Part shown: in pieces, positions 3,210 to 55,910 of the stretch
Position numbering within the stretch: position 1 is the stretch's first letter
How the letters are laid out: every line of letters starts with the position of its first letter
Origin: an uncultured Gammaproteobacteria bacterium
Lineage (GTDB): Bacteria > Patescibacteriota > Microgenomatia > Levybacterales > GWA1-39-11
Assembly: GCA_964504535.1 (NCBI GenBank)
Contig: CAZDED010000002.1
Span: 82,673 to 146,672, forward strand
Length of the DNA stretch: 64,000 nucleotides
Direction of reading: 5' to 3'
Program-made: the position numbers and the translations under genes
Notes under the pieces: generated by a model
What the model was told of the DNA's origin: nothing
The model's input: only the letters and a program-made list of their open reading frames with translations
Databases searched by the model: none

Positions 3210-3980
3210 ATGTATAATACTAATATGCCGCAATTCCTTCTTACAGTCGTGATCCCCTCATATAACGAGATGGGAAACCTTCAGAAAGGAATCCTCAACA
3301 AAATCCAAAGATATCTCGACCGTCAGCCTTATAACTATGAAGTTATTGTAGTTGATGATGGGTCAACAGATGACAGCCGTGACTTCATAAAGAAATTTAC
3401 CAAGGAGGAAAAGCAATTTCATTTGATCGAAAACAGCCATTCGGGTAAGGCTGGTGCTGTAACTGCTGGTATGCTTGCAGCAAAAGGGGATTATATATTG
3501 TTCACAGATATGGATCAGGCAACACCAATTGAAGAATTGGAAAAGGTCATGCCTTTTATCCAAAAAGGCTTTGATGTTGTCATAGGGTCTCGGAGTGGGA
3601 ATAGGAAAGGCGCACCTTTGACTCGCAAAATAATGGCAAAAAGCATGATGATCCTCAGATCCACTATAGTTGGCCTTCCTGAAATAACAGATACTCAGTG
3701 CGGATTCAAATTGTTTACCAAAGATGCAGCGAAAAAGATTTTTGAGAAAGTGAAAGAGTCACATCATGGATTTAAAAAAATACATGGTTCTTCTGTCACG
3801 GCTGGGTTTGATATTGAGCTTCTGTTTATCGCAAAAAATATGGGTTTTAAGATAAAAGAGGTGCCGGTTAGCTGGCTTTATGTCGAGACTAGAAGAGTTA
3901 GCCCTATCAAAGACTCTGTTGAGGGATTTTTAGAGTTATTTAAAATCAGAAAAAATATCAATTCAGGTAAATACGACTGA
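3210..3980 (+). CDS. GT2 polyprenyl-phosphate glycosyltransferase (DPM1/GtrB/CsbB-like)
   Basis: VVIPSYNE, VIVVDDGSTDDS, TDMDQ (DxD) and CGFKLF are typical Dpm1/GtrB motifs. Likely true start is ATG 3225 (MPQFLL). Confidence 0.8.
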   Translation: MYNTNMPQFLLTVVIPSYNEMGNLQKGILNKIQRYLDRQPYNYEVIVVDDGSTDDSRDFIKKFTKEEKQFHLIENSHSGKAGAVTAGMLAAKGDYILFTDMDQATPIEELEKVMPFIQKGFDVVIGSRSGNRKGAPLTRKIMAKSMMILRSTIVGLPEITDTQCGFKLFTKDAAKKIFEKVKESHHGFKKIHGSSVTAGFDIELLFIAKNMGFKIKEVPVSWLYVETRRVSPIKDSVEGFLELFKIRKNINSGKYD

Positions 3981-3981
3981 C

Positions 3982-5139
3982 ATGTCAAAGAAATTTTTCC
4001 TCCCATTGTGGATCACAGGTGCTCTGCTTCTGTTCTTCTATTCTTTCACGCAAGTTGATCTTTCCCTTACATTGTCAAAAGCGTCCATATTTCAAACGAT
4101 TGAGAAATCTTTTCAATATGTCGGATGGTTCAATAGACCTGTCTCTACCTATTTATATATAGCGGTTTTTGCAATTTTGTTTTTTCTTTATCTTGCAACC
4201 ATAAGACTTGTCTCAAAAAATAAGCTTTCGAGAAAAAAAATTTGGCTAGCAATATTTATCGTGACTGGTATCCTTACACTTTCCTATAATGCTTTTTCCT
4301 ATGATCTTTTCAATTATGTATTTGACGCAAAAATAGTCACTTTCTACCACCAAAATCCCTATATCCACAAAGCGTTGGATTTTCCAAATGACCCCATGCT
4401 TTCATTCATGAGATGGACTCATCGGGTCTATCCTTATGGTCCAATATGGTTGGGACTTACGATCCCATTGAGTTTTGTAGGGGCAAATATATTTATCGTG
4501 ACTGTTTACCTTTTCAAAATTATGATTGCTTCATTTTTCCTTTTAACAGTGTGGTCTATAGAGCGGATAGGAAAAACCCTGAAATTTGAGAATGTTCTTC
4601 TGCCTGTCGTTGCATTTGCTTTCAATCCATTTGTTCTTAGCGAGAGCTTGGTTAGTGCTCACAATGATATTGTTATGATGGGACTTGCTCTTTATGCAAC
4701 AAGTCTTCTTATGGACAAAAAAACTGTGAAGGGGAGTGTGGTGTATATACTCTCAATAGGTCTGAAATTTGCGACAGCCTTCTCATTTGCAGGATACATA
4801 CTTCTTTTGTTGTTCAAAAAAACGAAATACGTGATTGAGGCAAGTATAATTCTTTCAATAGTAGCCGTCATTGTTGCTTCGATGCGTACGAATTTTCAAC
4901 CGTGGTATCTGTTGTATGTAGTGCCCTTTGCCGTTCTTTTGATTGGTAAAAGATATGCCCGGTACCCTCTGTATATTTTTTCAACCGCTAGTGTAATTTA
5001 TTACATACCATTTCTTTATTCAGGTAACTGGAATGACCCAATACCAATGATTCTTAACACAATCGTTATAGGTGCAACAGTGTTGTCAATTGTTACTATT
5101 CTCATATTTTTTCCTCATTCAAAAAAAGAAACAAACTAG
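3982..5139 (+). CDS. Polytopic membrane protein, possible GT-C-type glycosyltransferase (DUF2029/GT87-like?)
   Basis: 385 aa with 9 or more predicted TM helices. Motifs YDLFNY…HQNPY…YPYGPIW resemble polyprenol-P-sugar-dependent mannosyltransferase-like proteins. Family assignment uncertain. Confidence 0.4.
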   Translation: MSKKFFLPLWITGALLLFFYSFTQVDLSLTLSKASIFQTIEKSFQYVGWFNRPVSTYLYIAVFAILFFLYLATIRLVSKNKLSRKKIWLAIFIVTGILTLSYNAFSYDLFNYVFDAKIVTFYHQNPYIHKALDFPNDPMLSFMRWTHRVYPYGPIWLGLTIPLSFVGANIFIVTVYLFKIMIASFFLLTVWSIERIGKTLKFENVLLPVVAFAFNPFVLSESLVSAHNDIVMMGLALYATSLLMDKKTVKGSVVYILSIGLKFATAFSFAGYILLLLFKKTKYVIEASIILSIVAVIVASMRTNFQPWYLLYVVPFAVLLIGKRYARYPLYIFSTASVIYYIPFLYSGNWNDPIPMILNTIVIGATVLSIVTILIFFPHSKKETN

Positions 5140-5160
5140 ATATTCTGCTACAATAACCAT

Positions 5161-6708
5161 ATGCAAATATTAAAGAAATTATTCCCTGAAATTATCGTTG
5201 CCCCCATCCTTCTCGTCCTTTTTCTCATGACCCGCCTCATCAATATCTTGGCTGTTCCTATATTTACAGATGAGGCTATTTACACAAGATGGTCACAAAT
5301 TGCCAGATATGACTCCAATTGGAGATTTATCTCCCTAACTGACGGAAAGCAACCTGCATTTGTCTGGATAAATATGATTGTCATGAGATTTTTTGATGAT
5401 CCTCTTATGGGAGGAAGAGTGGTATCTGTGATATGCGGACTATTTGTTGTTATCGGTCTTTACTTTGTTACAAAGGAAATTTTTAGAGGTCACAAGCATG
5501 CAAGGATCATGGGACTTGTTGCATCGTCTCTTGCAGTTTTCTACCCCTTCCTTCTTGTTTATGACAGACTTGCACTTTATGAAAGTATGATAGCGGCATT
5601 TATGGTGTGGGCATTATATTTTCAGATCACACTTATCAGAAGAATCCGCTTTGATATGTCAATGATAACAGGACTTGTGATGGGTGGGGCAGTCCTTACA
5701 AAGTCTTCAGGGTTTCTGGCTCTTTATCTAATTCCCTTCATCTTTCTGCTTTTTGATTTTAAGAAAAAAAATAGAAGATCAAGATTGATAAGAGCAGTTT
5801 TCTATTTCATTCTGTCTGCAGTTATTGTTAATGTTTGTTATGCCATTCTTAGGCTTTCGCCTTTTTACCATATCATCAATCAGAAAAATGCAGTTTTTGT
5901 ATATGACGTAGGTTCTTGGATAAAACTTGCTACAAACATCAAAATAGATCTTCTATTTAGTAATTCACGCGGACTTTTTGACTGGTTTTTCACATACTTC
6001 ACAGTACCGTGGAGTCTTCTAGTCTTAATTTCTTTCTTCGTTAAAAAAGAACATCTTAAAGAAAAAATAGTTTTATTCTTGTGGTTCTTGCTCCCCCTTC
6101 TTGCTCTTTGTTTTCTTGGAAAAACGTTGTATCCCCGCTATCTCTTATTCATGACAATTCCTCTTATCCCACTTGTTGCATATAGTGTCACTTCGTTGTT
6201 TTTGAAATTCAAAAATAATATAGTCAGAGCAGTAATTATTGCATTGATAGTAGTTCTTCCCTTGTGGTCTGACTATTTCATCCTGTTTGATTTCGCACGT
6301 GCCCCTATTCCTAAAATCGACCTTGAGCAGATGATAAATGGATGGCCAGCTGGAGGTGGGCTACGGGAAAGTGTAGAATTTTTTAAAGAAAAATCGAAGA
6401 ATGGTGAGATCATGGTAGGAACTCAAGGTACATTTGGACTTATGCCTGCTGCATATGAAATATATTTTAGAGATAACCCAAATGTCCGCATCAATGGATT
6501 TTGGCCAGTTGAGAGTGATAAGGTTCCGGATCTTTTGACTGACTATGCAAAAAGAATTCCAACCTATTTTGTTTTCTACCAACCCTGTGGAGCATGTGAG
6601 GATGCAGGTATCGCACCAAAAGCATTAAATCTCAAGGAAGTTGCTTCATACAAGAAGGGAATTGGCACGACCAGACTCACAATATACCAGGTGTTAAAAA
6701 GCGAGTAG
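5161..6708 (+). CDS. GT-C membrane glycosyltransferase, ArnT/PMT-like (divergent member of family A)
   Basis: 515 aa, polytopic. First extracytoplasmic loop carries FTDEAIYTRWSQ (DE motif of the GT39/GT83 superfamily). Confidence 0.55.
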   Translation: MQILKKLFPEIIVAPILLVLFLMTRLINILAVPIFTDEAIYTRWSQIARYDSNWRFISLTDGKQPAFVWINMIVMRFFDDPLMGGRVVSVICGLFVVIGLYFVTKEIFRGHKHARIMGLVASSLAVFYPFLLVYDRLALYESMIAAFMVWALYFQITLIRRIRFDMSMITGLVMGGAVLTKSSGFLALYLIPFIFLLFDFKKKNRRSRLIRAVFYFILSAVIVNVCYAILRLSPFYHIINQKNAVFVYDVGSWIKLATNIKIDLLFSNSRGLFDWFFTYFTVPWSLLVLISFFVKKEHLKEKIVLFLWFLLPLLALCFLGKTLYPRYLLFMTIPLIPLVAYSVTSLFLKFKNNIVRAVIIALIVVLPLWSDYFILFDFARAPIPKIDLEQMINGWPAGGGLRESVEFFKEKSKNGEIMVGTQGTFGLMPAAYEIYFRDNPNVRINGFWPVESDKVPDLLTDYAKRIPTYFVFYQPCGACEDAGIAPKALNLKEVASYKKGIGTTRLTIYQVLKSE

Positions 6709-6710
6709 GC

Positions 6711-8375
6711 ATGAAAACATATCTGAAAAGCTTCATAAAGAAGAACAAATATCTCCTGGTCATCATTCTTCTTTCTATTCTTCCAACAATTCCCTATTTC
6801 ATTACTTCAAATCTGATCCATACACATGACGGGTTAGTGCATCTGCCACGATTGGCTGCTTACTATCATGCATTAACTGAGGGGAGTATTCCTGTCAGAT
6901 TCGCCGGGTATATAAATTACGGATATGGTTTGCCTTTATTCAATTTCATTTACCAATTCCCATATTGGGTAGGTTCTCTCCTTTTGTCGGTTGGATTTGG
7001 ATTGGTTGCTGCTTTTAAAATATCGATAACCCTCAGTTTTCTACTTTCCGGGATATTTATGTTCATGTTCGGGAAAGAATTTTTCAAAGATGATAGACAG
7101 GCACTTTTGGTCGCTGTTTTGTATCAGTTTGCTCCTTTCAGGATGGTAGAACTTCTTGTTAGAGGTAGTTATGGCGAGGTTTATACGTATGCTTTTTTGC
7201 CACTAGTTTTGTATGGTTTGGTAATACTCTCTAAAAACAGAACATTAAAAGGGTTTTTAGTAACGTCTCTTGCAGTTTTTTGCCTCATTGTTTCTCATAA
7301 CTCTGTTTCACTCATGTTTTTTGGAGCAGCATTTTTATTTGTAATTTTTACTTTCAACAATGTAAAAAAAGGTTTATTTGCATTTTTGTCGATGTTTTTG
7401 GGACTTGGGCTGGCCGCATTCTATTGGATGCCCGCGCTTCTTGAGCATAAGTATACATTTGGTGATCTTTTCATGTCCAAATTGTATGAATCATATTTCC
7501 CATCCTTCCAAAATTTCTTTATTCCAAATTTCAACAATAATCCATCACTTCAAACGACTGGAATAACGACATACATCGGACTTATCCAGGGGATAGTTCT
7601 GATATGCGGACTATTTGTTCTTTTATTCAAAAGAAAAAAACTGAAAGAGTATGCTCGTATATTTTATTTTGGGTATGCACTTGTTGCTATCTCTTTTTTC
7701 TTTATGAGTCCTGTATCGAAATTCATTTGGAGCGCTCCAATTGGTGCGATGCTTCGTCAATTTCAATTTCCATGGAGATTTTTGGCGTTGATAGTCCTTT
7801 CAACCTCTTTACTCTCAGTTGGATTGACGACTGTCTCAAAAAGACTTCTCGATAACCGTGTTTACATAAGTATTATACTGTTGACTGTTTTGTCGGTGGC
7901 CTTTTATTGGAAGGGTAGTCTTGGGTTTGATAAGATTAACGAAAAATATTATTGGAATTTTCCACTAACCTCAACTTATTACGGTGAAACAGATGTCATA
8001 TGGTCTGAAGGACCTGCAAAATCATATCCAAAGCAAAGAGTAGAGTTCACAAGCGGAAAAGGCACTATAACCAATTTTGTAAAAAGGAATACTTATCAGT
8101 CATTTGATGCTTTAGCTTTAACTGACTCTGAGATGGTTTCGCATACTCAGTATTTTCCGGGATGGACGGTTAGGATTGATGGTGTAAAAACTCCTATTCA
8201 ATTCCAAAGCGCAAACCATCGTGGTGAGATACTCTTTAACATACCTCAGGGAAATCACAAAGTAGTTCTTCGGTTTGAAGAAAGTAAGATCAGATTGGCT
8301 GCCGATTTTATAACTCTTTGTAGCTTTATAACGTTTTTTGTCCTTGTGTTTTTAAGAAAGAGAATATTTAGATGA
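6711..8375 (+). CDS. Family B: GT-C-like polytopic membrane protein with N-terminal HTHDGxxH motif and C-terminal YFPGW domain (possibly PTPS-related/YfhO-related)
   Basis: 554 aa. HTHDGLVHLPRLAAYY…PVRF…GYGLPLFNFIYQFPY. C-terminus YFPGWTVRIDGVKTPI. Paralogous to 12179, 13723 and 19432. Confidence 0.55.
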   Translation: MKTYLKSFIKKNKYLLVIILLSILPTIPYFITSNLIHTHDGLVHLPRLAAYYHALTEGSIPVRFAGYINYGYGLPLFNFIYQFPYWVGSLLLSVGFGLVAAFKISITLSFLLSGIFMFMFGKEFFKDDRQALLVAVLYQFAPFRMVELLVRGSYGEVYTYAFLPLVLYGLVILSKNRTLKGFLVTSLAVFCLIVSHNSVSLMFFGAAFLFVIFTFNNVKKGLFAFLSMFLGLGLAAFYWMPALLEHKYTFGDLFMSKLYESYFPSFQNFFIPNFNNNPSLQTTGITTYIGLIQGIVLICGLFVLLFKRKKLKEYARIFYFGYALVAISFFFMSPVSKFIWSAPIGAMLRQFQFPWRFLALIVLSTSLLSVGLTTVSKRLLDNRVYISIILLTVLSVAFYWKGSLGFDKINEKYYWNFPLTSTYYGETDVIWSEGPAKSYPKQRVEFTSGKGTITNFVKRNTYQSFDALALTDSEMVSHTQYFPGWTVRIDGVKTPIQFQSANHRGEILFNIPQGNHKVVLRFEESKIRLAADFITLCSFITFFVLVFLRKRIFR

Positions 8376-10507
8376 AAAGAATTTTCCCAATCATAATTCT
8401 GCTTTTTATCTCTGTCTTTTTTTTCTACAAAACATTTCTTTTTTTTGAAGTCCCATTTCCCGGTGATCTTTTAGTTTCGGAGTACGCCCCGTGGAAATAC
8501 GATTCATACTTGGGATACAATCCCGGTTCTTATCCGAATAAAGCCCAGTATTTTGATGTAGCCCGTCAATTGTATCCTTGGAAAATGCTTGCGATTGATC
8601 TACTCAAGCAAGGAACAATTCCCTTATGGAATCCATACAACTTTTCTGGAAGTCCTCTTCTTGCAAATAACCAATCGGGAGTTTTCTACCCTCTAAATCT
8701 CGTTTTATTTTCGGGCTTCAAAGGCTTTTCTTGGAGTATTTATATTTTTTCTCAACCCTTTTTAGCCTCGATTTTTATGTATCATTTTGCAAAGTCACTG
8801 AAGCGCTCGATTGGGGCATGCCTAATCGCTTCTGTCTCTTTTGGATTTTCTCTTTTCATCTCCACTTTTTTGGAATATGGAAATATTGGCCACACGATTC
8901 TCTGGTTGCCTCTTATATTGTTATGTATAGAGAAATTTAAGGATAAAAAACTACTTTTTGGCCCCATCCTTTCGATTCTAATAAGTTTTGTCTTTTTTGC
9001 CGGTCATCTGCAGATAGCCGTATCACTCGTTCTTTTCTCTTGTGTTTATTTATTTGTGACCAATATAAAAAACAAAATGTTACTTTTAAAGGGATTTCTC
9101 TTTATTTTTCTTGGGATACTGCTTTCATCTGTCCAACTGATTCCGACATTAGAACTGTTATCAAATTCAGCAAGAGAAGCGCACGCGCAACACATGATAA
9201 ATGACCTATTTCTTTTGCTACCACAACAATTAATTCTGCTATTTTCGCCGGATACGTACGGGAACCCGGCTACAAGAAATTATTTACTAACTGACACATA
9301 TCCGGGTAACGCTATATATATAGGTATAATACCTCTTATTTTTGCGACCGTTGCAATTCTTGATAAGAAAAGAGATAGAACAACCAATATTTTTATTCTT
9401 TTTACTGTCGCATTTCTTGTTTTATTCATCAAGAATCCAGTTTCAACTGCAATATTCAATCTGTCTATTTTTTCAGCAAGTTCACCCTCTAATTTTTTCT
9501 ATTTGTTAGGATTTTGCATCAGTGTTCTTTGTGCAATTGGAGTAGACGCAAAAAAGGAAACTTTAAAAAAGAATGTGATAACAGTTGGAATAATTTTTCT
9601 TTTGCCTCTTTTGTTCTTTTTATTACACATACTTTTACATATCCCCGTAAATGCAAAACAATTTTCACTAAGCATGGGAATAGTTGCGATAAGTTCTTTA
9701 GCCTTTATTTTATTTAAAGTTATCAAAACCAGACATCTCTGGGTTCTTCCACTGTTAGTACTTACACTTGAGCTTTTTTACTTCTTTATTAAATTCAATC
9801 CCTTTGTTTCAAAAAATTTGATATACCCTAAAAATGATATGATCTCATACATTCAGAAAGAGGCCGGATACAATCGGTTCATTGGTTTTAGGGCAGCATC
9901 GATTGAATCCAACTTTTCAACATTATTTAAAGCATACTCTCCGGACGGATACGATCCGTTATACCCCAAAATTTACAATTCGTATACGAATTCAAAATCC
10001 CGGTCTGATGTGATAATTGATCTTGCCAACAAAAAAATTCTAGATGAGCTTAGTGTCAGATTCATCCTCGACCGGGTGGAAAATGGAGCAGATGAAAAAG
10101 TGTTTGATCCAAATGAATTTTCTATCATTTATACCAATAATTCATGGCGAGTATTTAAAAATAACGATTCCTACCCGAGAGCATATGTCAATGAAAAAGG
10201 TCAAATTACTCAAGCAAGTATCGTTTCGTATACACCTAACAAAGTAGTGATAAATAAAAATGAGGGAGCCGGAACGTTAGTTTTATCAGATACCTATTTC
10301 CCAGGGTGGGAGGGTAGTATTGACGGCGAGAAAAGCGAGATTGTAAAAGTTAACAGTATTTTTAGAGGGATAATAGTTCCTGCGGGGAAGCACACTATTA
10401 TTTTTGAATACAAACCTAAATCTTTCTATTGGGGTGCAATTGTTACTATAATAAGTAGTGCTCTGACTGTTTGTATGTTTGCTTTATTGAAAAGATATTC
10501 AAAATGA
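8372..10507 (+). CDS. YfhO-family membrane protein (family C)
   Basis: 711 aa. N-terminus YPWK…GTIPLWNPYNFSGSPLLANNQSGVFYPLNL, C-terminus YFPGWEGSIDGEKSEI…IFRGIIVPAGKHTI. ATGA overlap with the upstream gene. Confidence 0.65.
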   Translation: MKRIFPIIILLFISVFFFYKTFLFFEVPFPGDLLVSEYAPWKYDSYLGYNPGSYPNKAQYFDVARQLYPWKMLAIDLLKQGTIPLWNPYNFSGSPLLANNQSGVFYPLNLVLFSGFKGFSWSIYIFSQPFLASIFMYHFAKSLKRSIGACLIASVSFGFSLFISTFLEYGNIGHTILWLPLILLCIEKFKDKKLLFGPILSILISFVFFAGHLQIAVSLVLFSCVYLFVTNIKNKMLLLKGFLFIFLGILLSSVQLIPTLELLSNSAREAHAQHMINDLFLLLPQQLILLFSPDTYGNPATRNYLLTDTYPGNAIYIGIIPLIFATVAILDKKRDRTTNIFILFTVAFLVLFIKNPVSTAIFNLSIFSASSPSNFFYLLGFCISVLCAIGVDAKKETLKKNVITVGIIFLLPLLFFLLHILLHIPVNAKQFSLSMGIVAISSLAFILFKVIKTRHLWVLPLLVLTLELFYFFIKFNPFVSKNLIYPKNDMISYIQKEAGYNRFIGFRAASIESNFSTLFKAYSPDGYDPLYPKIYNSYTNSKSRSDVIIDLANKKILDELSVRFILDRVENGADEKVFDPNEFSIIYTNNSWRVFKNNDSYPRAYVNEKGQITQASIVSYTPNKVVINKNEGAGTLVLSDTYFPGWEGSIDGEKSEIVKVNSIFRGIIVPAGKHTIIFEYKPKSFYWGAIVTIISSALTVCMFALLKRYSK

Positions 10508-12201
10508 TAAAGATATTATCTAAATATCAGGGAGTGATGCTTGTGTTTGTTTTTATTTTGGGATTTTTATTGAGATTTAACAATTTAGACAAAATCCCAA
10601 ATGGGTTATATCAAGATGAGACTGCTATCGGATATAACGCCTATTCTATTCTTTCAACAGGAAAAGATGAATATGGTAAGTCCTATCCTGTTTATTTTAA
10701 ATCTTTCGGTGATCAAAAACTTCCGACTTATATTTATATAACTGCAATAAGCGAGAAGATATTTGGTGTCAACACTTTTGCTGTTAGATTTCCGTCTGCC
10801 TTTTTTGGATTTTTGACTGTTGTTGCTTTTTACTTCTTCGTTAAATTATTGACCAAAGACAAAGTAATTGCATTTGTTTCAACGGCTTTACTCTCAATCA
10901 ATCCTTGGAGTCTGGATTATAACCGCGCCACCTTTGAGGTCAGTATTTGCATGTTCCTTTTTGTTTTTGGAGGTTATCTGCTCCTTAAATCATTTGAGAA
11001 TAAAAAGTTTGGGTTGTTTTTGAGTGGCTCAATCCTGTTCATCGTCTGTCTGTACTCCTACAATCTGACAAGACTGCTGTCTCCATTACTGTATGGACTA
11101 ATTTTAGTTATCAACAAAAAACATCTGAGAAACGTGATGAGGGTAGAGTACATAATAACGGTTTTGGTTTCGCTTTTACTTCTTTTGCCATTCGCAACAT
11201 CAATTTTTTCAAGCGGAGGGGCATCATCTGCATCAGGAACCTTTCTCTTCTCAAGTAACGCAGTCAAAGCACCATTGTTAGAATTTCGGAGTTATTTTGT
11301 ATACCACGATTTTTTTGCAAAACTGTTTTTTAACACTTGGGTACTTTTAGGATGGCAATACGTTAACAATATTGTTTCTTATTTCTCAACGCCGTTCTTA
11401 TTTGTCACCGGATCTGCTCATGGTAATCATGGTATCGGTAATGCAGGACAACTATATTTATTTGAGTTTCCACTCGTGATTCTGGGTATTGTGATTGCTT
11501 TGAAGAATAGGCTTCACGGGACTAAATTATTAGTTGCGTGGGGGGTTATTACAGTTCTTGTAGCATCGTTGACACGGGATATACCTCAAGCGACCAGAAG
11601 CATCTTTCTTGTGGTCCCCCTTGAGATATTCTCCGGAGTAGGACTTGTATATTTTTACAAATATGCAAAAACAATCAAACCGTTCTTTCTAAAAAGTATC
11701 GTCTGGATAATTGTTATTGGAGTCTCGCTTTATTCAATTCTATTTTATTTTTCATCTTACTACATTAGATTTCCTATCTATTATGCAAAGCAATGGAGGC
11801 AGCAAGATCAGGAATTAGTAAAGTACTTAGTCTCAGAAGAGAAGAAGTATGATCATGTTATTGTTGATTCAAAATCAGGTTTTATTTATTCTTCATATTT
11901 ATTTTATTCATTGTTTTCTCCGCAGGAATTTCAAAACAGTGTAAAAAGGTTGCCGGATGACAAGGAAGGATTTAGTAAAGTTGCGAGTTTTGGAAAATTT
12001 GAATTTCGGGATGTAGATTGGCAGAATGATATAAATACTCCAAAAACTCTAATTATAACCACGAATAATTTCAGACCAAAAGAAATGCCTGTTGAAAAGT
12101 CATTTAATTATCCGGTACGCCCTGTCGTCCAATCAGTTGGAGAAGTAATCAGTATTTTTCCTGTTACAGATAACGCCTATGAAGTTGTCAAAGCTAAGTA
12201 A
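10504..12201 (+). CDS. Family A: GT-C glycosyltransferase, PMT/ArnT-like (GT39-type)
   Basis: GLYQDETAIGYNAYSIL loop motif, polytopic, ~565 aa. Start set at ATG 10504 (ATGA overlap with the upstream stop) rather than the track's 10471. Confidence 0.65.
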   Translation: MIKILSKYQGVMLVFVFILGFLLRFNNLDKIPNGLYQDETAIGYNAYSILSTGKDEYGKSYPVYFKSFGDQKLPTYIYITAISEKIFGVNTFAVRFPSAFFGFLTVVAFYFFVKLLTKDKVIAFVSTALLSINPWSLDYNRATFEVSICMFLFVFGGYLLLKSFENKKFGLFLSGSILFIVCLYSYNLTRLLSPLLYGLILVINKKHLRNVMRVEYIITVLVSLLLLLPFATSIFSSGGASSASGTFLFSSNAVKAPLLEFRSYFVYHDFFAKLFFNTWVLLGWQYVNNIVSYFSTPFLFVTGSAHGNHGIGNAGQLYLFEFPLVILGIVIALKNRLHGTKLLVAWGVITVLVASLTRDIPQATRSIFLVVPLEIFSGVGLVYFYKYAKTIKPFFLKSIVWIIVIGVSLYSILFYFSSYYIRFPIYYAKQWRQQDQELVKYLVSEEKKYDHVIVDSKSGFIYSSYLFYSLFSPQEFQNSVKRLPDDKEGFSKVASFGKFEFRDVDWQNDINTPKTLIITTNNFRPKEMPVEKSFNYPVRPVVQSVGEVISIFPVTDNAYEVVKAK

Positions 12202-13726
12202 AATAGTACTTTTCCCGATTTTAGCAGGAATTCTTTCAATTCCTTCGATATTTTCTCTCCTAAGACAAGGATTTTTCACTTCCGATGATGGTGGGTGGAT
12301 GATCATTCGATTTGCTGCTTTTTACAGTAGTTTTTCAGATGGGCAATTTCCTGTGAGATTTCTGAAAGGTCTTAATTTCGGATATGGGTATCCGGTAGCC
12401 AATTTTTTGTACCCTGGATTCATGTATATGGCAACTCCATTTCACCTGTTGGGTTTTGGAATCGTAGATAGCATAAAAATAGTAGTAATATTTAGTTTTA
12501 TTTTCTCCTCAGTCTTTACTTTTTTATGGTTAAGAACACTATTTAACAAACTTCCATCACTGATAGGCTCTGTGTTATTTGTCTATACTCCATATCATCT
12601 CTTCGATTTGTATAAGCGGGGGTCAGTTGGAGAAATTGTTTCGCTTACTTTTGTGCCACTGGTTCTTTATGGAATTGAAAAAAGAAATTTTTATGTCATT
12701 TCAATTGCTATATTTTTATTGATTATTTCCCATAATTCCATGGCATTACTATTTTTGCCTTTGATTCTTGCCTATATCTTTATCCGGTATTCTGTTGATA
12801 AGAAATTAATTTTAGGAGTAGGAACTGGTATCGCACTTTCTTCCTTTTTTATATTTCCTGCAGTGCTTGAATTAGGGTATACATATTTTAAAAAGACATC
12901 GATATCAAATCCTTCCGAATATTTTGTTGGGATAGACCTTATTGGGATCATATCTATTCTTCTTCCATTAGCATCACTTGTTGTCTATAGACTGATGAGA
13001 AAAAATAAAAAGGATTCAACTGGGATTATTTTTCTTTTTATTACCGTTTCTTTAATTGGAATATTTCTAAGTACTTCACTAAGTGAGTTTTTGTGGAAAA
13101 CACCGATTGCATCTCTTCTGCAGTTCCCATTTAGAGTACTTGCATTATTACTCGTAAGTAACGCCTTCTTGTCTGCATTCATAGTTAATTTTTTCAAAGG
13201 ATCAATAAGAATTGTTGTTTGTGTAGTTATATTATGCGTGAGTGCATATTCATGTATTAGTTTTCTAAAGCCGGAGGAATTTAATGATATTCCAGATTCG
13301 GTCTATGCAACAAATCCTGCCACAACAACGGTGAAGAATGAATACATGCCAATATGGGTAACCGAATTTCCAGAATCACAGTATGAGCATAAAGTCGAGT
13401 TATTAAATGGAGTAGGGGAGGTTGGCAATCTAATTGAGAAGTCGAATAATATCAGTTTTGATCTGAATAATAATACTGCAACTGAAATAAGACTAAACAC
13501 TGTTTATTATCCTGGGTGGAGGGCGTATGTTGATAATAATGAAGTAAAAATACAGTATATGAATCCTAAAGGGGTTATGGATATCCCTATTGCCGAAGGA
13601 CAAAAAAATATTCGATTTGTTTTTTCAGAAACTCCTGCAAGGCTGATAGCGGATTTGATATCCGGCCTTGCCGTTATTGCTTTGATGTTATACCCTTTTT
13701 GGGTACGAAATAAATTTAAGAAATGA
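12179..13726 (+). CDS. Family B GT-C-like membrane protein (HxD…YxPGW)
   Basis: 515 aa. FFTSDDGGWMIIRF…PVRFLKGLNFGYGYPVANFLYPG. C-terminus VYYPGWRAYVDNNEV. Confidence 0.55.
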   Translation: MKLSKLSKIVLFPILAGILSIPSIFSLLRQGFFTSDDGGWMIIRFAAFYSSFSDGQFPVRFLKGLNFGYGYPVANFLYPGFMYMATPFHLLGFGIVDSIKIVVIFSFIFSSVFTFLWLRTLFNKLPSLIGSVLFVYTPYHLFDLYKRGSVGEIVSLTFVPLVLYGIEKRNFYVISIAIFLLIISHNSMALLFLPLILAYIFIRYSVDKKLILGVGTGIALSSFFIFPAVLELGYTYFKKTSISNPSEYFVGIDLIGIISILLPLASLVVYRLMRKNKKDSTGIIFLFITVSLIGIFLSTSLSEFLWKTPIASLLQFPFRVLALLLVSNAFLSAFIVNFFKGSIRIVVCVVILCVSAYSCISFLKPEEFNDIPDSVYATNPATTTVKNEYMPIWVTEFPESQYEHKVELLNGVGEVGNLIEKSNNISFDLNNNTATEIRLNTVYYPGWRAYVDNNEVKIQYMNPKGVMDIPIAEGQKNIRFVFSETPARLIADLISGLAVIALMLYPFWVRNKFKK

Positions 13727-15426
13727 AAAAAATTCATAAAACTATTCTTATACTTTTCATTATTCTTTTCGGGTTAGGCACAATATTTCCATTGTTTCAT
13801 TCCGGCTTTTTTGAAGTTCATGATAATACGCAGGTCGAAAGGGTATACCAGATGGGAGTTTCACTAGCTGACAAATCATTTCCCGTCCGGTGGGTTCCTG
13901 ATCTTGGTTATGGATATGGCTATCCGATATTCAATTTTTATGCACCCCTCCCATATTATGTGGGGGGAATCCTTTTCATAAGTGGCATTGGAGCTCTTTT
14001 TGCAACAAAGATTATGTTTGGCTTGGGTATATTACTTTCAGGAATTTCTATGTATTTTCTCACAAAGAAATTTTTTGGGGTAGGACCTGGAGTGGTTGGA
14101 AGCGTAATATACATGTACTTTCCATACCACGCGGTTAATATATACGTTAGGGGAGCAGTGGGTGAATTTTTTGCTTATGCTGCTATTCCTCTCATATTTC
14201 TTGGGTTATTCCAATTCGTCGAAAATAGGAAGGCAACCTTAGTCACTTCTGAAAATTTCCGCACGGTCGTTTTGACTTCTTTTGCCATCTTTCTTGTAGC
14301 AATATCCCACAACTTAAGTATCTTTATGTTCCTCATTCTTCTAGTTCCCTTTATTGTAATCAGTTTGTTTGTTATTAGAAATAAAAGAAATTTTCTTCTG
14401 TTATCCGGCACTTCAATCGTTATCGGTTTTATGCTTAGCGCTTTCTATATTCTTCCAGCATTTATGGAAATGTCTTATACCAATGTTGGGTCTCAAGTTG
14501 GAGGAGGGGCATACGTTCCCGACCACTTTGTATGCGTGGGGCAATTTGTAGATAGTATTTGGGGATTTGGAGGATCTGTAAAAGGATGTTTGGATGGGCT
14601 CAGTTTTAGACTTGGGAAAGTAAATATTTTACTTGCTATTTTTGGTGTGGTTTTGTTGATTCACGCTTTTTACCGTAGAAAGATAGAACGGACGGATATG
14701 CTTGCTCTCGTAAGTTTTTTGCTCCTTTGTTGTTCAGTATTTTTGAGTCTTAGTCCCTCAAGATTTGTTTGGGATAGTATTCCATTCATGCAGTATATTC
14801 AATATCCATGGAGATTTTTGAATTTTATCGGACTATTCATCTCAATTATTGCCTCTTATTCTGTATTTAAGATCAGTAAAAACTCTTGGAAAAAAGGAAT
14901 CGTTCTTATGATTTTGATCATTATCCTGACGTTATTTACAAATTTAAAGTTATTCAGCCCTCAGGAATTTAATAATTATTCCGACAGTCACTACACTTCA
15001 CAAAACCATATACGCTTTGACACGTCAAAAATATCAGATGAATACTTGCCCTCTGGTTTTCAGACTCCTTATTCCGCCTACGAATTACCTAGTGCAACGG
15101 TAGAGTTGCTCAAGACAAGTGGAAATGTCGGTGTAATTGCGTATCATACCGGATACCTTAAAGCATCGTATCAGGCTTTGTCCGATGGTGTTATTCATGT
15201 TAACTATGCATACTTCCCGGGATGGCAAGCAAGTGTTAATGGGGAGAAGATGCCAATAGTCCCGACTGCTGATGGAATGAATATATCTGTTAGGAAGGGG
15301 AGTGGACAGTTAGAGCTCAAATTTGTACAGACACCCATCGAAGTTGCCGGAAATACTATTACTATTCTTGCTTTTTTAGTATTGTTACTTGGTATAATAA
15401 AAACCAGTTTGAATAGCAAGAAATAG
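13723..15426 (+). CDS. Family B GT-C-like membrane protein (HxD…YxPGW)
   Basis: 567 aa. FFEVHDNTQVERVYQ…PVRWVPDLGYGYGYPIFNFYAPLPYY. C-terminus AYFPGWQASVNGEKMPI. Confidence 0.55.
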   Translation: MKKIHKTILILFIILFGLGTIFPLFHSGFFEVHDNTQVERVYQMGVSLADKSFPVRWVPDLGYGYGYPIFNFYAPLPYYVGGILFISGIGALFATKIMFGLGILLSGISMYFLTKKFFGVGPGVVGSVIYMYFPYHAVNIYVRGAVGEFFAYAAIPLIFLGLFQFVENRKATLVTSENFRTVVLTSFAIFLVAISHNLSIFMFLILLVPFIVISLFVIRNKRNFLLLSGTSIVIGFMLSAFYILPAFMEMSYTNVGSQVGGGAYVPDHFVCVGQFVDSIWGFGGSVKGCLDGLSFRLGKVNILLAIFGVVLLIHAFYRRKIERTDMLALVSFLLLCCSVFLSLSPSRFVWDSIPFMQYIQYPWRFLNFIGLFISIIASYSVFKISKNSWKKGIVLMILIIILTLFTNLKLFSPQEFNNYSDSHYTSQNHIRFDTSKISDEYLPSGFQTPYSAYELPSATVELLKTSGNVGVIAYHTGYLKASYQALSDGVIHVNYAYFPGWQASVNGEKMPIVPTADGMNISVRKGSGQLELKFVQTPIEVAGNTITILAFLVLLLGIIKTSLNSKK

Positions 15427-15427
15427 T

Positions 15428-16141
15428 ATGAGTAAGCTGTTGCCTGAACTATCTATCTTTTTTCCCTTCTGGAACGAGGAGAAAAATGTAAAACATGTTG
15501 TTGAGAATGCGATACCTGTCGCGCGTGAAGTAGCTGAAAAATGGGAGATCATAATAGTAGATGACGGCTCATCAGACAAGACCTACGCCATAGGTCAAGA
15601 ACTGGCAAAAAAACACGAGAATGTTAAAGTAATAACCCACAATCCTAACCGCGGATATGGAGCAGCTCTTAAAGAAGGATTTGAAAACGCAAAATATGAT
15701 TATGTCGTATTTACTGATGGTGATAGACAGTTTGATTTTGGCGAGGTTAAAAAATTGATAGGTGCCCTTGATGGTGCTGATATTGTCATTGGCTTTAGAA
15801 AAAGAAGAAGAGACAGTATATCAAGACATGTTTTGATGTATCTTCTGAAGTTTTGGGATTATATTTTCTTTAGATTTTACTTCAAAGATATTGACTGTGG
15901 TTTTAAATTATTTACAAGACATGCCCTTGTAGAAATTATGCCACTTAGATCAGAAGGAGCAATGATCACTACAGAAATCCTTGCAAAGGCGACACGAAAG
16001 AAGTTAAAGATAAAGCAGGTAGAAGTTAATCACTATAAAAGAGAATACGGTGCTCAGAGTGGTGCTAATATTGCTGTTGTTATACGCGCTGTTCTGGAAA
16101 GTTTTATATTGTGGTTTGACATCCTCAATAAAAGGATTTAA
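15428..16141 (+). CDS. GT2 polyprenyl-phosphate glycosyltransferase (DPM1/GtrB-like)
   Basis: LSIFFPFWNEE, IIIVDDGSSDKT, FTDGDRQFD and DCGFKLF motifs. 237 aa. Confidence 0.8.
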   Translation: MSKLLPELSIFFPFWNEEKNVKHVVENAIPVAREVAEKWEIIIVDDGSSDKTYAIGQELAKKHENVKVITHNPNRGYGAALKEGFENAKYDYVVFTDGDRQFDFGEVKKLIGALDGADIVIGFRKRRRDSISRHVLMYLLKFWDYIFFRFYFKDIDCGFKLFTRHALVEIMPLRSEGAMITTEILAKATRKKLKIKQVEVNHYKREYGAQSGANIAVVIRAVLESFILWFDILNKRI

Positions 16142-16173
16142 AAAATATTAATGGCAGACAAGGTTAACTTTAT

Positions 16174-17628
16174 ATGGATGAATTCGAGTTGCATGCTATT
16201 GCCACAAAGTCTGTCAAAGGCGTTTTCGCGTTAGTATCACGATCTTTCCTGCTGCAGCTTCTTGGTGTTGCAACAAGTTTTATTCTGACGTTATATCTAG
16301 ATCCAGCAAGCTTTGGCGTATTTTTTGTAGTTTCCTCAATAATTGTCTTTTTTAATTATTTTCAGGACATTGGTCTTGCTGCGTCTTTAATTCAAAAAAA
16401 AGATGAACCAACGATACGTGAACTACGTACGGTATTTTTTATTCAAGAATTACTCGTATTGGCTCTTATTATTCCCGCCATACTGTTCTCAAACTCAATT
16501 GTACATTTCTACAAACTTAATGGTGATGGATACATACTCTATATCTCTTTACTGATTTCATTCTTCCTAACGTCCCTTCGAACAATCCCTACAGTTATTA
16601 TGGAGAGAAAGCTTGACTATACAAAGCTGGTAGTGCCTCAAATTTTAGAAAATCTCACTTACAATGTTTGTCTGATTGTATTTGCTATCGCCGGGTTTAA
16701 GGTGCAGAGCTTTACGATAGCAATTTTAGCCAGAAGTGCGGTTGGTCTTATAGCAACATATGTTGTTTCTCCATGGCCAATCGGGCTTGCATTTGATAGG
16801 CAGAGTCTCAGAAAACTCATCTCATTTGGGATACCATTCCAAACGAACAGTATCCTGGCTTTATTTAAGGATGATTTCAGAACAATTTATCTAGGGAAGG
16901 TTTTACCGATTTCACAACTTGGATATATTGGTTTTGCAGAAAAAATGGCCAACCTTCCCCTGCGGCTTGTCATGGACAACGTTATAAAAGTAACATTTCC
17001 TTCATTTAGTAGGCTTCAGGAGGACAAAGAAGCCTTGAAGTTGGCAATAGAAAAATCTCTTTTTCTTATTTCACTTGCGATATTTCCAATAGCTGTTGGA
17101 ATCATCAGCTACTCTCCATACCTCATGCAGTTCATACCTAAATATCAAAAATGGGAGCCTGCAGTGATATCCATAATGTTTTTCTCGCTTGGGACTGTTC
17201 TTTCCTCGATATCAACTCCACTGACAAATTTTCTCAATGCTATAGGTAAGGTCAAAATAACTCTTTATTTTATGGTTTTTTGGACAATAGCAATTTGGTT
17301 CTTAACGATACCATTGATTCATATGTACGGCTACAACGGAGTTGCAATAGCCTCTTTCCTTGTGTCCTTAACATCTGTGGGAGTATTTTATGTAGCAAAG
17401 AAGCATGTAAAATTTAAGATATTCGGATCCATATATAAGCAGTTCATTGCTGCAGTTGTTATGTACATCTTCGCTTTGGCAACAAGCAGCATGATTAGTT
17501 CACTGGTTATCATGCTTTTGTTCTCAGTTATCTCACTGGTAGTTTATTTTGCTGTAATAATGCTTATTGCCCGGAAAGAATTTCTCAAAACTGCCCGCTT
17601 CGTTTTAAGTTCTGTGAGAAAACATTAA
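16174..17628 (+). CDS. Wzx-type oligosaccharide flippase (MOP superfamily, polysaccharide biosynthesis protein)
   Basis: 484 aa, ~12-14 TM helices. N-terminal VKGVFALVSRSFLLQLLGVATSFIL…YLDPASFGVFFVV is typical of the Polysacc_synt family. Confidence 0.7.
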   Translation: MDEFELHAIATKSVKGVFALVSRSFLLQLLGVATSFILTLYLDPASFGVFFVVSSIIVFFNYFQDIGLAASLIQKKDEPTIRELRTVFFIQELLVLALIIPAILFSNSIVHFYKLNGDGYILYISLLISFFLTSLRTIPTVIMERKLDYTKLVVPQILENLTYNVCLIVFAIAGFKVQSFTIAILARSAVGLIATYVVSPWPIGLAFDRQSLRKLISFGIPFQTNSILALFKDDFRTIYLGKVLPISQLGYIGFAEKMANLPLRLVMDNVIKVTFPSFSRLQEDKEALKLAIEKSLFLISLAIFPIAVGIISYSPYLMQFIPKYQKWEPAVISIMFFSLGTVLSSISTPLTNFLNAIGKVKITLYFMVFWTIAIWFLTIPLIHMYGYNGVAIASFLVSLTSVGVFYVAKKHVKFKIFGSIYKQFIAAVVMYIFALATSSMISSLVIMLLFSVISLVVYFAVIMLIARKEFLKTARFVLSSVRKH

Positions 17629-17646: not shown

Positions 17647-18546
17647 ATGAAGGTAAGTGTGGTGATTTCCGCCTACAATGAAGAGGAAAAGATTGAAAAA
17701 TGTCTTTCCTCTGTGAAAGATATAGCCGATGAAATAATTTTTGTTGATAACTCTTCAACTGATGGAACGGTACGAATTGCTAGAAAATATACTGATAAGG
17801 TTTTTTCGCGCGAAAATAACCCGATGCTCAACGTGAATAAGAATTTCGGTTTTACAAAAGCAACAAAGAATTGGATACTCAGTCTAGATGCAGATGAGCG
17901 GGTAACTCCAGAACTCGCTTCAGAAATCATGCAGTTGTCTGAATCAGAAGATGTAAGAGGTTACTTTATTCCAAGGAAAAACATAATTTTTGGTAAGTGG
18001 ATTCGTCATACCGGCTGGTACCCCGATTATCAACTACGGCTTTTCAGGGCAGACAGTGGAAGGTTTGCGGAAAAACAGGTGCACGAGATGATTTCTCTTG
18101 TTGGTGCTTCAGAGCATCTTGAAAGTCCGATGGAGCATTTGAATTATGAGAATATTACACAGTTTTTAAATAAAATGGTTAAAACCTATACAGTTTCTGA
18201 AGCAGAGAATTTAATAAGTCAGGGATACAAATACAACTCTCTTGATCTTGTTAAGATGCCCCTTTCAGAATTTTTGAAGCGTTATTTTGCGGAAAGTGGA
18301 TATAAGGATGGGATGCATGGATTAGTCCTTTCTCTTCTTCAAGGATTTTATCATTTCGTAGTTTTTCTAAGACTTTGGGAAGCTAATAATTATCCAGATG
18401 AGAAGGATGGCCAAGCATTGCTTTTGGAAGGCAAGAAGATGGTATCTCATGAATTCAAGTATTGGGTTACCCATACTAAGATAGAAAACGAAGCAAACGT
18501 TTTGAAAAAAAATCTGTTAAAAGTAAAAAGAAAAATCCTTCTCTGA
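17647..18546 (+). CDS. GT2 glycosyltransferase (KdtX/WaaE-like subfamily; paralogue of 23392 and 44885)
   Basis: VVISAYNEEEKI…IIFVDNSSTDGT…SLDADERV. Confidence 0.7.
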   Translation: MKVSVVISAYNEEEKIEKCLSSVKDIADEIIFVDNSSTDGTVRIARKYTDKVFSRENNPMLNVNKNFGFTKATKNWILSLDADERVTPELASEIMQLSESEDVRGYFIPRKNIIFGKWIRHTGWYPDYQLRLFRADSGRFAEKQVHEMISLVGASEHLESPMEHLNYENITQFLNKMVKTYTVSEAENLISQGYKYNSLDLVKMPLSEFLKRYFAESGYKDGMHGLVLSLLQGFYHFVVFLRLWEANNYPDEKDGQALLLEGKKMVSHEFKYWVTHTKIENEANVLKKNLLKVKRKILL

Positions 18547-24153: not shown

Positions 24154-24154
24154 A

Positions 24155-24403
24155 TTATTTCCTGCGAAACCAAGACTTCAATTCTGATATTGTCAATCTT
24201 TTTTTAGCGAACCAGAAAAGGTAAACTATTTCCAATATGCCCATATCATTGAGTGGTATTAAGATGAAGAGGGCTATAAACCAATTTCTTTGTTTGAGTT
24301 GAGACGAACGCCATAGGGCTATTCCTTTCCAGATAAGCTGCCAAACCGAAAGGACAATAATTACTGCGATAATAAGTGGATCTGGGGTGGCAATCTTTTT
24401 CAT
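24155..24403 (-). CDS. Small 2-TM membrane protein (PLD-nuclease-N-like small membrane domain?)
   Basis: 82 aa with two hydrophobic helices (LIIAVIIVLSVWQLIWKGIALW / WFIALFILIPLNDMGILEIVYLFWF) and a basic C-terminal tail. Only minus-strand gene inside the first 50 kb of the cluster. Confidence 0.4.
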   Translation of the reverse strand: MKKIATPDPLIIAVIIVLSVWQLIWKGIALWRSSQLKQRNWFIALFILIPLNDMGILEIVYLFWFAKKRLTISELKSWFRRK

Positions 24404-24409
24404 AGTCTA

Positions 24410-24418
24410 TTTGTAGCA
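24410..24418 (-). promoter_or_regulatory. Extended -10 (TGcTACAAA on the minus strand) 6 nt upstream of the ATG at 24403; candidate leaderless promoter
   Basis: Minus-strand read: TGCTACAAA-tagact-ATG. Confidence 0.25.
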
Positions 24419-24441
24419 CAGTGACATTTTTTATGCAATAT

Positions 24442-24450: not shown

Positions 24451-24456
24451 AAAGTA

Positions 24457-55850: not shown

Positions 55851-55910
55851 TGACAATAACCGATAATAGCATATTTACAATCTAAATAAAAATGAGTAAT
55901 ATCTATTATC

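Follow-up and report, generated by a model that had tools for sequence, protein, structure and literature searches.

The closest described relatives of the genes analysed here include the streptococcal Gac system, in which a MOP-family flippase, GacK, stands alongside GacJ, GacL and GacI, a synthase without transmembrane (TM) helices (10.1101/180810; PMC8035078), and the pairing of Ppm1 with MptB and Pmt in Actinobacteria (PMC3485146, PMC2440535, PMC5882110). In Haloferax volcanii a glycan is begun on dolichol monophosphate by the DPM1-like AglJ and lengthened by AglG, AglI and AglE; once it has been flipped, AglB transfers it, and the last mannose is added by AglD, the Wzx-like AglR and the GT-C enzyme AglS (PMC3871713). 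In this study we have analysed a stretch of 64,000 nucleotides from a Levybacteria genome (Patescibacteria, or candidate phyla radiation, CPR), referred to as the window. It holds a large glycosylation locus with the same kinds of component: four GT2 glycosyltransferases which resemble polyprenyl-phosphate glycosyltransferases (PI-GTs), two MOP/Wzx-family flippases and about 20 polytopic membrane proteins of the GT-C type. Genes are named below by their first coordinate. We consider it probable, with moderate confidence, that this locus serves to assemble or decorate a glycan of the envelope on the outside of the membrane by means of these PI-GTs, Wzx flipping and the GT-Cs.

The first part of this proposal depends on what the four GT2s are. 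The ten GT2s of the window fall into three groups by all-against-all BLAST. Group 1 contains 3210, 15428, 28691 and 49039 (48991 from an alternative start), which are mutual best paralogues with 26-32% identity over their full length; group b contains 17647, 23392 and 44885, and group c 18546, 27759 and 58404. All four group-1 proteins match Pfam Glycos_transf_2, and their nearest PDB sequences are exclusively Pyrococcus dolichol phosphate mannose synthase (DPMS), Salmonella ArnC and Synechocystis GtrB. These alignments span the whole catalytic domain, to residue ~190-240, whereas other GT2s in the PDB align only over the N-terminal, nucleotide-binding ~100 residues. DPMS is the best match of 3210 (5mlz, 62 bits, residues 9-189, followed by ArnC and GtrB), of 28691 (residues 7-219) and of 49039 (residues 24-239, 50 bits), and 15428 matches ArnC, DPMS and GtrB best. 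Two GT2s of the same locus served as controls: the best PDB match of 27759 is chondroitin synthase, over the N-terminal part only, and those of 23392 are GmaR, a ThuS-like enzyme and SunS. The latter matches hint that the group-b GT2s may act in cytoplasmic protein glycosylation or on an unusual acceptor. Among the best NCBIfam matches of the four are PgfS, ArnC, AglJ, PpgS and the haloarchaeal Dol-P hexose transferase.

The predicted fold of 15428 agrees with these matches. Its AlphaFold2 model (pLDDT 89.4) gave a Foldseek list in which the top 25 were all ArnC, DPMS or GtrB, with a TM-score of up to 0.81 and ~230 of the 237 residues aligned. The model contains an internal helix (131-148) and a C-terminal helix (215-233) at the positions of JM1 and JM2 of GtrB, the internal and C-terminal amphipathic juxtamembrane helices which define PI-GTs (PMC4728340); by sequence, 3210, 28691 and 49039 probably have such helices too. 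The DxD motif reads DMD in 3210, DGD in 15428 and DAD in 28691, and the alignment places DAG at this position in 49039. The G[ST]R motif is conserved in the group-1 alignment, and a D..CGFK-type motif, which holds the equivalent of GtrB D157, is present in all four (for the roles of the DxD residues and of D157, see PMC4728340). The unusual DAG may mean that 49039 binds metal differently or is inactive; this protein also carries a long basic C-terminal tail. Taken together, the PI-GT-like nature of the four GT2s is supported by sequence for all of them and for 15428 also by the predicted fold. No TM helix was found in any of the four, and therefore they do not belong to the GtrB/CsbB subtype but group with DPM1/Ppm1/GacI, the type which needs a membrane partner. 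The original prediction, made from this DNA alone, had described these GT2s as DPM1/GtrB-like, and this description stands, with the qualification that they are nearer to DPM1, Ppm1 and GacI than to GtrB.

For comparison with relatives, 15428 orthologues were confirmed at 161 places in a collection with one genome per species, and 80 loci with 10 kb on either side were kept, their open reading frames (ORFs) being classed by similarity to the window proteins. At least 80 Levybacteria genomes have such an orthologue, with identities of 61-97%. At one 15428-orthologue locus (L026, 6492-8339, plus strand) the usual neighbours are missing and four tandem pilin-like genes (Pfam T4SS_pilin) were seen.

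All ORFs of at least 100 amino acids (aa) in the window were scanned with Pfam. The predicted features, with their evidence in brackets, are as follows.

3210..3980, plus: PI-GT no. 1, DPM1/Ppm1-like GT2, 256 aa, without TM helix (Pfam GT2)
3982..5139, plus: GT-C of the MptA/MptB (GT87-like) family, 385 aa, ~8-10 TM helices (PF26314 on identical protein P0121)
5161..6708, plus: GT-C, PMT_2 type (Pfam PMT_2, 3.8e-10; loop-1 DE motif)
6711..8375, plus: GT-C, PTPS_related (YfhO-related) type (Pfam PTPS_related, 3.5e-16)
8372..10507, plus: GT-C, YfhO type (Pfam YfhO, 3.2e-27; four-base overlaps with the GT-C genes on both sides)
10504..12201, plus: GT-C, PMT_2/PMT type, 565 aa (Pfam PMT_2 and PMT; gene call in a near-identical contig; DE motif)
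12179..13726, plus: GT-C, PTPS_related-like (weak Pfam match; hhalign 100% to the PTPS group)
13723..15426, plus: GT-C, PTPS_related type, directly upstream of PI-GT no. 2 (Pfam)
15428..16141, plus: PI-GT no. 2, 237 aa, GT-A domain and two juxtamembrane-type helices, without TM helix (Pfam GT2, PDB, AlphaFold2 model)
16174..17628, plus: MOP/Wzx-family flippase, 12 TM helices (Pfam Polysacc_synt_3, 2.8e-46; NCBIfam MOP flippase family)
17647..18546, plus: GT2 of group b, GmaR/SunS-like (Pfam, NCBIfam, BLAST; PDB control run on the paralogue 23392)
18546..19454, plus: GT2 of group c, rhamnosyltransferase/MftF-like (Pfam, NCBIfam, BLAST grouping)
19447..21099, plus: GT-C, PTPS_related type (Pfam; gene call)
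21089..23395, plus: GT-C, YfhO type (Pfam)
23392..24153, plus: GT2 of group b, overlapping the YfhO gene end, not of PI-GT type (PDB: GmaR, ThuS-like, SunS)
24155..24403, minus: DUF5652 small membrane protein, 82 aa, 2 TM helices (Pfam DUF5652, 3.5e-19)
24457..25524, plus: GT4 glycosyltransferase (Pfam)
25518..27758, plus: GT-C, YfhO type (Pfam YfhO, 1e-27)
27759..28694, plus: GT2 of group c, not of PI-GT type (PDB: chondroitin synthase, N-terminal part only)
28691..29422, plus: PI-GT no. 3, 243 aa, without TM helix (Pfam GT2; PDB DPMS)
29419..30663, plus: GT-C, GT87 type (Pfam GT87)
30653..32374, plus: GT-C, PMT_2 type (Pfam)
32382..34322, plus: U1, GT-C by fold only, 646 aa (model and Foldseek)
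34355..36031, plus: GT-C, PMT/PMT_2 type (Pfam); a longer reading with a TTG start, 34319-36031, had no database record on look-up
36018..37508, plus: GT-C, PMT_2 type, loop-1 DQ variant (Pfam, alignment)
37505..39163, plus: GT-C, PMT_2 type (Pfam)
39160..40839, plus: GT-C, PMT_2-like (weak Pfam match; 37% identical to 43229)
40841..42106, plus: GT-C, PMT_2-like (profile evidence only: hhalign 94% to the PMT_2 profile, in register)
42160..43224, plus: NAD-dependent sugar epimerase/dehydratase (Pfam, NCBIfam)
43229..44872, plus: GT-C, PMT_2 type (Pfam)
44885..45661, plus: GT2 of group b (Pfam, BLAST grouping)
45654..46631, plus: UDP-glucose 4-epimerase GalE (NCBIfam TIGR01179, 384 bits against a cut-off of 262)
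46668..47729, plus: GT4 glycosyltransferase (Pfam)
47719..48978, plus: second MOP/Wzx-family flippase, 12 TM helices (Pfam Polysacc_synt_3 and Polysacc_synt)
49039..49875, plus: PI-GT no. 4, 278 aa, DAG in place of DxD; a TTG start at 48991 is also possible (Pfam GT2, PDB DPMS)
49872..50990, plus: GT4 glycosyltransferase (Pfam)
51030..52187, plus: sugar 4-aminotransferase, PseC/ArnB/WecE-like (Pfam DegT, 2.5e-129; NCBIfam)
52184..52900, plus: WecD-like amino-sugar N-acetyltransferase (Pfam, NCBIfam)
52887..54380, plus: U2a, polytopic membrane protein of 497 aa, possibly GT-C (without Pfam match)
54363..55856, minus: U2b, 497-aa paralogue of U2a, convergent (38% identical, BLAST)
55911 and 57701: two methyltransferase genes (Pfam)
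58404..59447, plus: GT2 of group c (Pfam, NCBIfam)
59444..61579, plus: U3, probable PMT_2-like GT-C (hhalign 83.5% to PMT_2; loop-1 GDE motif)
61629..63032, plus: MBOAT O-acyltransferase (Pfam)
63034..64000, plus: AlgX-like MBOAT partner, continuing beyond the window end (Pfam ALGX on the identical gene in L086)

The GT-C membrane proteins dominate this list. We count 19 which are supported by Pfam, profile or fold, one probable (U3) and two possible (U2a and U2b). The 19 comprise nine PMT_2-like proteins (Pfam PMT_2/PMT in 5161, 10504, 30653, 34355, 36018, 37505 and 43229, weakly in 39160, together with 40841), four PTPS_related (6711, 13723, 19447 and, weakly, 12179), three YfhO (8372, 21089 and 25518), two MptB/GT87-like (3982, and 29419 with a Pfam GT87 match) and U1. 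Beyond the values listed above, hhalign comparisons, for which profiles were built from orthologues in related loci, joined the 12179 profile to YfhO at 99% and 29419 to 3982 at 90%. The Pfam copy that we scanned lacks the MptA_B family and gave no match for 3982, but PF26314 MptA_B_family is assigned to the identical protein in the database. Among its homologues, some match GT87 in addition and one is named MptB by NCBI. On this Pfam match 3982 probably belongs to the MptA/B family. Neither 3982 and 29419 nor the U1 family profile had a sequence match in the PDB. The candidates are polytopic, with 8-13 TM helices, and within each group an acidic residue closely following the first TM helix is conserved: DE in seven of the eight aligned PMT_2-group genes and in U3, (H/D)D in the PTPS group and PxPxD in YfhO. 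The identification of these neighbouring polytopic proteins as GT-C enzymes, with acidic motifs in a predicted extracytoplasmic loop 1, is thus supported by their sequences.

U1 and the U2 pair are less easily placed. U1 has ~150 database homologues, yielded no Pfam match (no STT3 at E<=10) and no PDB sequence match, and its model (pLDDT 90.3) found only GT-C enzymes by Foldseek at E<=1e-3. Its nearest structures are the oligosaccharyltransferases STT3B and AglB, including the C-terminal globular domain of AglB. Inspection by eye of a consensus of 49 U1 homologues showed no WWDYG, and the likeness of U1 to oligosaccharyltransferases (GT66) is one of fold, with no STT3 homology seen at the sequence level. 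In most of the related loci U1 is absent within 10 kb. The hhalign comparisons of U1 and U2 with the GT-C profiles of the locus were not significant (35% probability for U2). U2a and U2b, which match no known family, lie tail to tail, their 3' ends overlapping by 18 bases, and share a conserved FGVD after the first TM helix; the pair could be GT-C or Wzy/ligase-like.

The arrangement of these genes differs in several ways from what had been proposed. The original prediction placed its modules at 3210-16141, but the locus is much larger: 38 co-directional plus-strand genes lie at 3210-54380 and the ORF listing shows further locus genes downstream. At most junctions within 3210-54380 the genes overlap by 1-23 bases or lie 0-60 bases apart, and the four-base ATGA overlaps and the gaps of 0-2 bases were verified. 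The single larger gap, 24154-24456, contains the minus-strand DUF5652 gene. Each YfhO gene had been thought to be coupled to a GT2. This is true of 21089, which overlaps 23392 by four bases, and of 25518, with a 0-base gap to 27759, but not of 8372, which is flanked by GT-Cs, since the supposed GT2 at 10504 is in fact the 565-aa PMT_2 GT-C overlapping it. With one YfhO lacking a GT2, and with the GT2 partners of the other two (23392 and 27759) unlike PI-GTs or CsbB, repeated GT2 and GT-C pairs on the CsbB-YfhO model do not describe this locus, although the three YfhO and the two Wzx genes (16174 and 47719) named in that prediction are all present by Pfam. It had also set each PI-GT directly beside a GT-C. 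This applies, at chance level, to 3210 (a minus-strand unknown ORF upstream, the MptB-like GT-C 3982 downstream), 15428 (GT-C 13723 upstream, Wzx 16174 downstream) and 28691 (GT2 27759 upstream, GT87 29419 downstream), but not to 49039, which lies between Wzx 47719 (47719-48978) and GT4 49872. Several parallel synthase/transferase sets had been expected as well; here four synthases stand against ~20 GT-Cs, and therefore most GT-Cs must share donors.

Could such neighbourhoods have arisen by chance? GT-Cs make up about half of the 38 genes, and simple arithmetic gives ~77% of genes a GT-C neighbour at random; adjacency within the window alone is therefore uninformative. What stands above chance is that specific gene orders are kept across 80 species. 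Of the 80 loci, 79 have Wzx directly after PI-GT (15428), 77 show the order GT-C, PI-GT (15428), Wzx, and in 31 a 3210-type PI-GT directly precedes a 3982-type MptB-like gene. The recurrent order begins with [PI-GT, MptB-like, PMT_2 ...], PTPS, PTPS, PI-GT (15428), Wzx, GT2b, GT2c, and after GT2c it continues with [PTPS YfhO GT2b, or GT2b YfhO], GT4, YfhO, GT2c, PI-GT, GT-C. The unit PI-GT, Wzx, GT2b, GT2c is present in most of the 80 loci, with a GT-C (PTPS_related or U1) next in 26, and the GT4-YfhO-GT2-PI-GT unit recurs in both genome and metagenome loci. The number of GT-Cs between the conserved anchors varies by species, with a median of 7 and a maximum of 9 per 20-kb locus.

These orders bear on the question of the flippase. 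As the original prediction had stated, no GtrA is recognisable: a search for PF04138 found none in the window ORFs of at least 100 aa, in 73 small ORFs (E<=1) or in the small multi-TM ORFs of related loci, and the same scans gave no SMR or DUF2304 (GacJ) protein. The matches which the search of small multi-TM ORFs returned in L026 are type IV secretion pilins at that atypical locus. Both Wzx genes adjoin PI-GT genes (15428-16174 and 47719-49039), an arrangement with a probability of 0.037 under random gene order. Apart from GacK, a MATE flippase occurs in a Citrobacter system (C. youngae ORF14; PMC11127046). That Wzx may stand in for GtrA, as had been suggested, is a reasonable prediction of function, backed by synteny and by these published precedents.

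The order GT-C, PI-GT (15428), Wzx corresponds to that of the streptococcal GacI/GacK/GacL set. The Gac system shares with the contiguous genes 13723, 15428 and 16174 a TM-less GT-A synthase, a proposed flippase of the Wzx type rather than GtrA and a polytopic GT-C. However, no GacJ (DUF2304) homologue was found here, a DUF5652 gene being conserved instead; one synthase and one GT-C there compare with four synthases and ~20 GT-Cs here; and our locus, in a CPR bacterium, has no polyrhamnose backbone genes or ABC exporter. In CsbB-GtcA-YfhO of Bacillus and Listeria and GtrA-GtrB-Gtr* of Shigella the logic is the same, a GT2 synthase with a GT-C (YfhO or PMT_2) outside the membrane, and YfhO 25518 forms one conserved unit with PI-GT 28691. 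CsbB and GtrB nevertheless have two C-terminal TM helices where the enzymes here have none, GtrA/GtcA is missing and the GT2s abutting YfhO genes are of other types. In the Corynebacterineae, Ppm1, a polyprenyl-phosphate mannose synthase of the soluble type, feeds many GT-Cs (MptA/MptB/MptC/PimE, Pmt, Emb/Aft) which polymerise and branch lipomannan, lipoarabinomannan and arabinogalactan outside the membrane. Their number of GT-Cs is comparable to that of this locus, and 3210-3982 is a Ppm1-like gene followed by an MptA/B-family gene. In contrast, the corynebacterial genes are scattered and those here form one co-directional locus, with no sign of phosphatidylinositol anchors, arabinose (DprE/UbiA) genes or mycolates. 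The Haloferax Agl system is similar in several respects. DPM1-like GT2s prime a lipid-monophosphate glycan and, separately, make the lipid-phosphate mannose donor; flipping has been linked to the Wzx-like AglR; the enzymes on the outside are an oligosaccharyltransferase and AglS, a PMT_2-like GT-C; and sugar-tailoring genes, including a methyltransferase, are clustered with them. It differs in that our organism is a bacterium with far more GT-C paralogues and without a sequence-recognisable STT3/AglB (U1 resembles them by fold only). Lastly, the region 43229-52900 recalls the Arn pathway (ArnB/ArnC/ArnT/ArnE-F) with its PMT_2 GT-C, ArnB-like aminotransferase, N-acyltransferase and PI-GT, and ArnC is the top structural match of 15428. 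Here, however, there is no ArnA-type dehydrogenase/formyltransferase, ArnD or SMR-type ArnE/F, and the cell is monoderm-type, without lipid A.

The DUF5652 gene deserves attention because the four PI-GTs have no TM helices, which makes its product a candidate membrane partner. Its place and orientation are the same in 54 of the loci compared for it. Of 40 metagenome loci that reach 5 kb or more, 39 have it there as well, in every case running divergently from the GT4-YfhO-GT2-PI-GT unit. The locus scan was made with a 5-sequence alignment, a 16-sequence alignment being too divergent. We found no functional literature on the DUF5652 family, and it is speculation that the protein might be a partner of the PI-GTs analogous to DPM3/DPM2 or GacJ. 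The locus of one relative (L003) additionally contains two small genes for GIY-YIG nucleases (5792-6073, minus strand, and 14427-14708, plus strand), possibly mobile elements of the homing type; one adjoins the DUF5652 gene.

Of the mechanisms compared here, the general one of the original prediction has the best support, and we propose that the system works as follows. Judging from their family, the four TM-less DPM1/Ppm1/GacI-type GT2s would use nucleotide sugars to glycosylate polyprenyl (undecaprenyl) phosphate on the cytoplasmic side of the membrane. The lipid-linked sugars would then cross the membrane, most likely through the two MOP/Wzx proteins, as synteny and the GacK precedent suggest, and on the outside at least 19 GT-Cs would draw on these donors to make, or add to, a glycan or glycoprotein of the envelope. 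The cytoplasmic GT2s and GT4s, GalE, the aminotransferase/acetyltransferase pair, the methyltransferases and the MBOAT/AlgX pair would supply and tailor the glycan. Several points weigh against this proposal. The scores of all four GT2s stay below the NCBIfam equivalog cut-offs, too low to assign a sugar specificity, and 49039 combines its DAG with the weakest scores of the four. The four synthases are TM-less, and the DUF5652 protein is no more than a candidate for the membrane partner that their type needs. Each Wzx also adjoins cytoplasmic GT2 or GT4 genes, so that conventional flipping of a lipid-linked oligosaccharide is possible, and even for GacK the flipping of monophosphate-linked sugars has only been proposed. 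Neither an acceptor nor a ligase came to light in the window, nor did a priming enzyme; a priming phosphoglycosyltransferase was sought there, and the Bac_transf and Glycos_transf_4 domains were absent from the Pfam scans. Tentatively, one may go further and suppose that a major envelope glycan is assembled almost wholly on the external side of the membrane, in the mycobacterial or archaeal style but with a different set of parts: TM-less PI-GTs, MOP/Wzx proteins flipping a monophosphate-linked sugar or oligosaccharide, at least 19 GT-Cs including U1, and DUF5652 as a DPM3/GacJ-like subunit or flippase.

Is it possible that some of the PI-GTs prime a glycan rather than supply donors? As in the AglJ pathway, at least 15428 and perhaps 49039 could start an oligosaccharide by attaching its first sugar to polyprenyl monophosphate. 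The neighbouring cytoplasmic GT2 and GT4 enzymes would extend it, the adjacent Wzx would flip it and a GT-C (PTPS_related or U1) would hand the whole chain over to a protein or polymer. The other PI-GTs would feed later steps like AglD/AglR/AglS. The original prediction did not consider that some GT2s may prime in this way, and we find it rather doubtful as an account of the locus, although it is compatible with our proposal for the remaining modules. It would explain the conserved PI-GT, Wzx, GT2b, GT2c unit and the GT-C that follows it in some loci, and it agrees with the lack of Bac_transf and Glycos_transf_4 domains, with AglJ being the best NCBIfam match of 28691 (115 bits) and among the best of 15428, and with the precedent of the Haloferax pathway (PMC3871713). 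However, the priming enzyme may sit elsewhere in the genome, like WecA in E. coli. The similarity of U1 to STT3B and AglB is compatible with AglJ-type priming but does not discriminate, and against it stand the lack of an STT3 match in the U1 sequence, the WWDYG motif not being seen there and the absence of U1 from most related loci within 10 kb. A different emphasis would be that the PMT_2-type GT-Cs are mainly protein O-glycosyltransferases, comparable to actinobacterial Pmt with Ppm1, and that the locus is a protein-glycosylation arsenal for S-layer, pilin or other surface proteins. The PMT-type DE in loop 1, the additional Pfam PMT matches of several of these genes, the Ppm1/Pmt pairing established in Actinobacteria (PMC5882110) and the resemblance of group-b GT2s to the protein- or peptide-glycosylating GmaR and SunS would fit. 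Yet PMT_2 also holds ArnT, which acts on lipid A, and GtlB, which acts on lipoteichoic acid (PMC8035078), and the family therefore leaves the acceptor unfixed; known MptB/GT87-like and YfhO enzymes act on glycolipids or polymers (PMC2440535, PMC5836110), and the window encodes no candidate target protein. We consider this explanation unlikely. Finally, the four GT2s might be ordinary nucleotide-sugar transferases whose acceptor is a growing glycan, lipid-linked or polymeric. The donors of the GT-Cs would then come from elsewhere, and the likeness to three-component systems would be superficial. The equivalog cut-offs which they do not reach would allow this, GT-A folds are broadly alike, and soluble transferases of the GpgS type come near in the fold list of 15428 (E ~1e-11, against 1e-16 for PI-GTs). 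Nevertheless, it is very improbable in our opinion, since all four match PI-GTs best over the full domain and the control GT2s do not, since the 15428 model has helices equivalent to JM1 and JM2, and since ~20 GT-Cs need lipid-phosphate sugar donors, for which these four are the sole candidate synthases in the locus.

The rest of the window is in keeping with glycan synthesis. Pfam counted ten GT2, three GT4, two Polysacc_synt/Wzx and two methyltransferase genes, three SDR epimerase/dehydratases, including the GalE above its NCBIfam cut-off, a DegT aminotransferase with a WecD-like acetyltransferase, an MBOAT with an AlgX-like partner and very many polytopic membrane proteins. A pair of MBOAT and AlgX-like proteins is typical of polysaccharide O-acetylation. 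The GC content is even across the window (0.33-0.39), and on this ground a foreign island was rejected as the origin of the locus. Recent tandem duplication of the arrays was likewise rejected: the paralogues are just 24-38% identical in all-against-all BLAST and are therefore old. With Levybacteria genomes of ~1.3-1.6 Mb, the locus (~60 kb) would take up ~4-5% of the genome. Identical or near-identical window proteins are present on contigs of metagenome-assembled genomes (MAGs), and many MAG records with a Levybacteria-type locus (L006-L011, L013-L014 and others) are titled 'uncultured Gammaproteobacteria bacterium', which is evidently a placeholder or mislabel.

Our literature search linking CPR, Patescibacteria or Levybacteria to GT-C, YfhO or PMT found nothing relevant, and no publication on the locus in the library searched. 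Its types of component are already known; what sets it apart is its scale, its conservation throughout the Levybacteria, the pairing of a TM-less synthase with Wzx, the GT-C recognised by fold only and the DUF5652 gene. The locus offers new GT-C sequence families in U1 and perhaps in U2 and U3, and it gives DUF5652 a first functional context. The near-invariant adjacency of synthase and Wzx provides clean candidates for studying whether MOP-family proteins flip polyprenyl-monophosphate sugars, a question which is open even for GacK. Experiments have revealed next to nothing about the cell envelope of CPR/Patescibacteria, which mediates attachment to the host, and ~20 predicted extracytoplasmic glycosyltransferases in a conserved locus imply that it carries a complex and probably important surface glycan.

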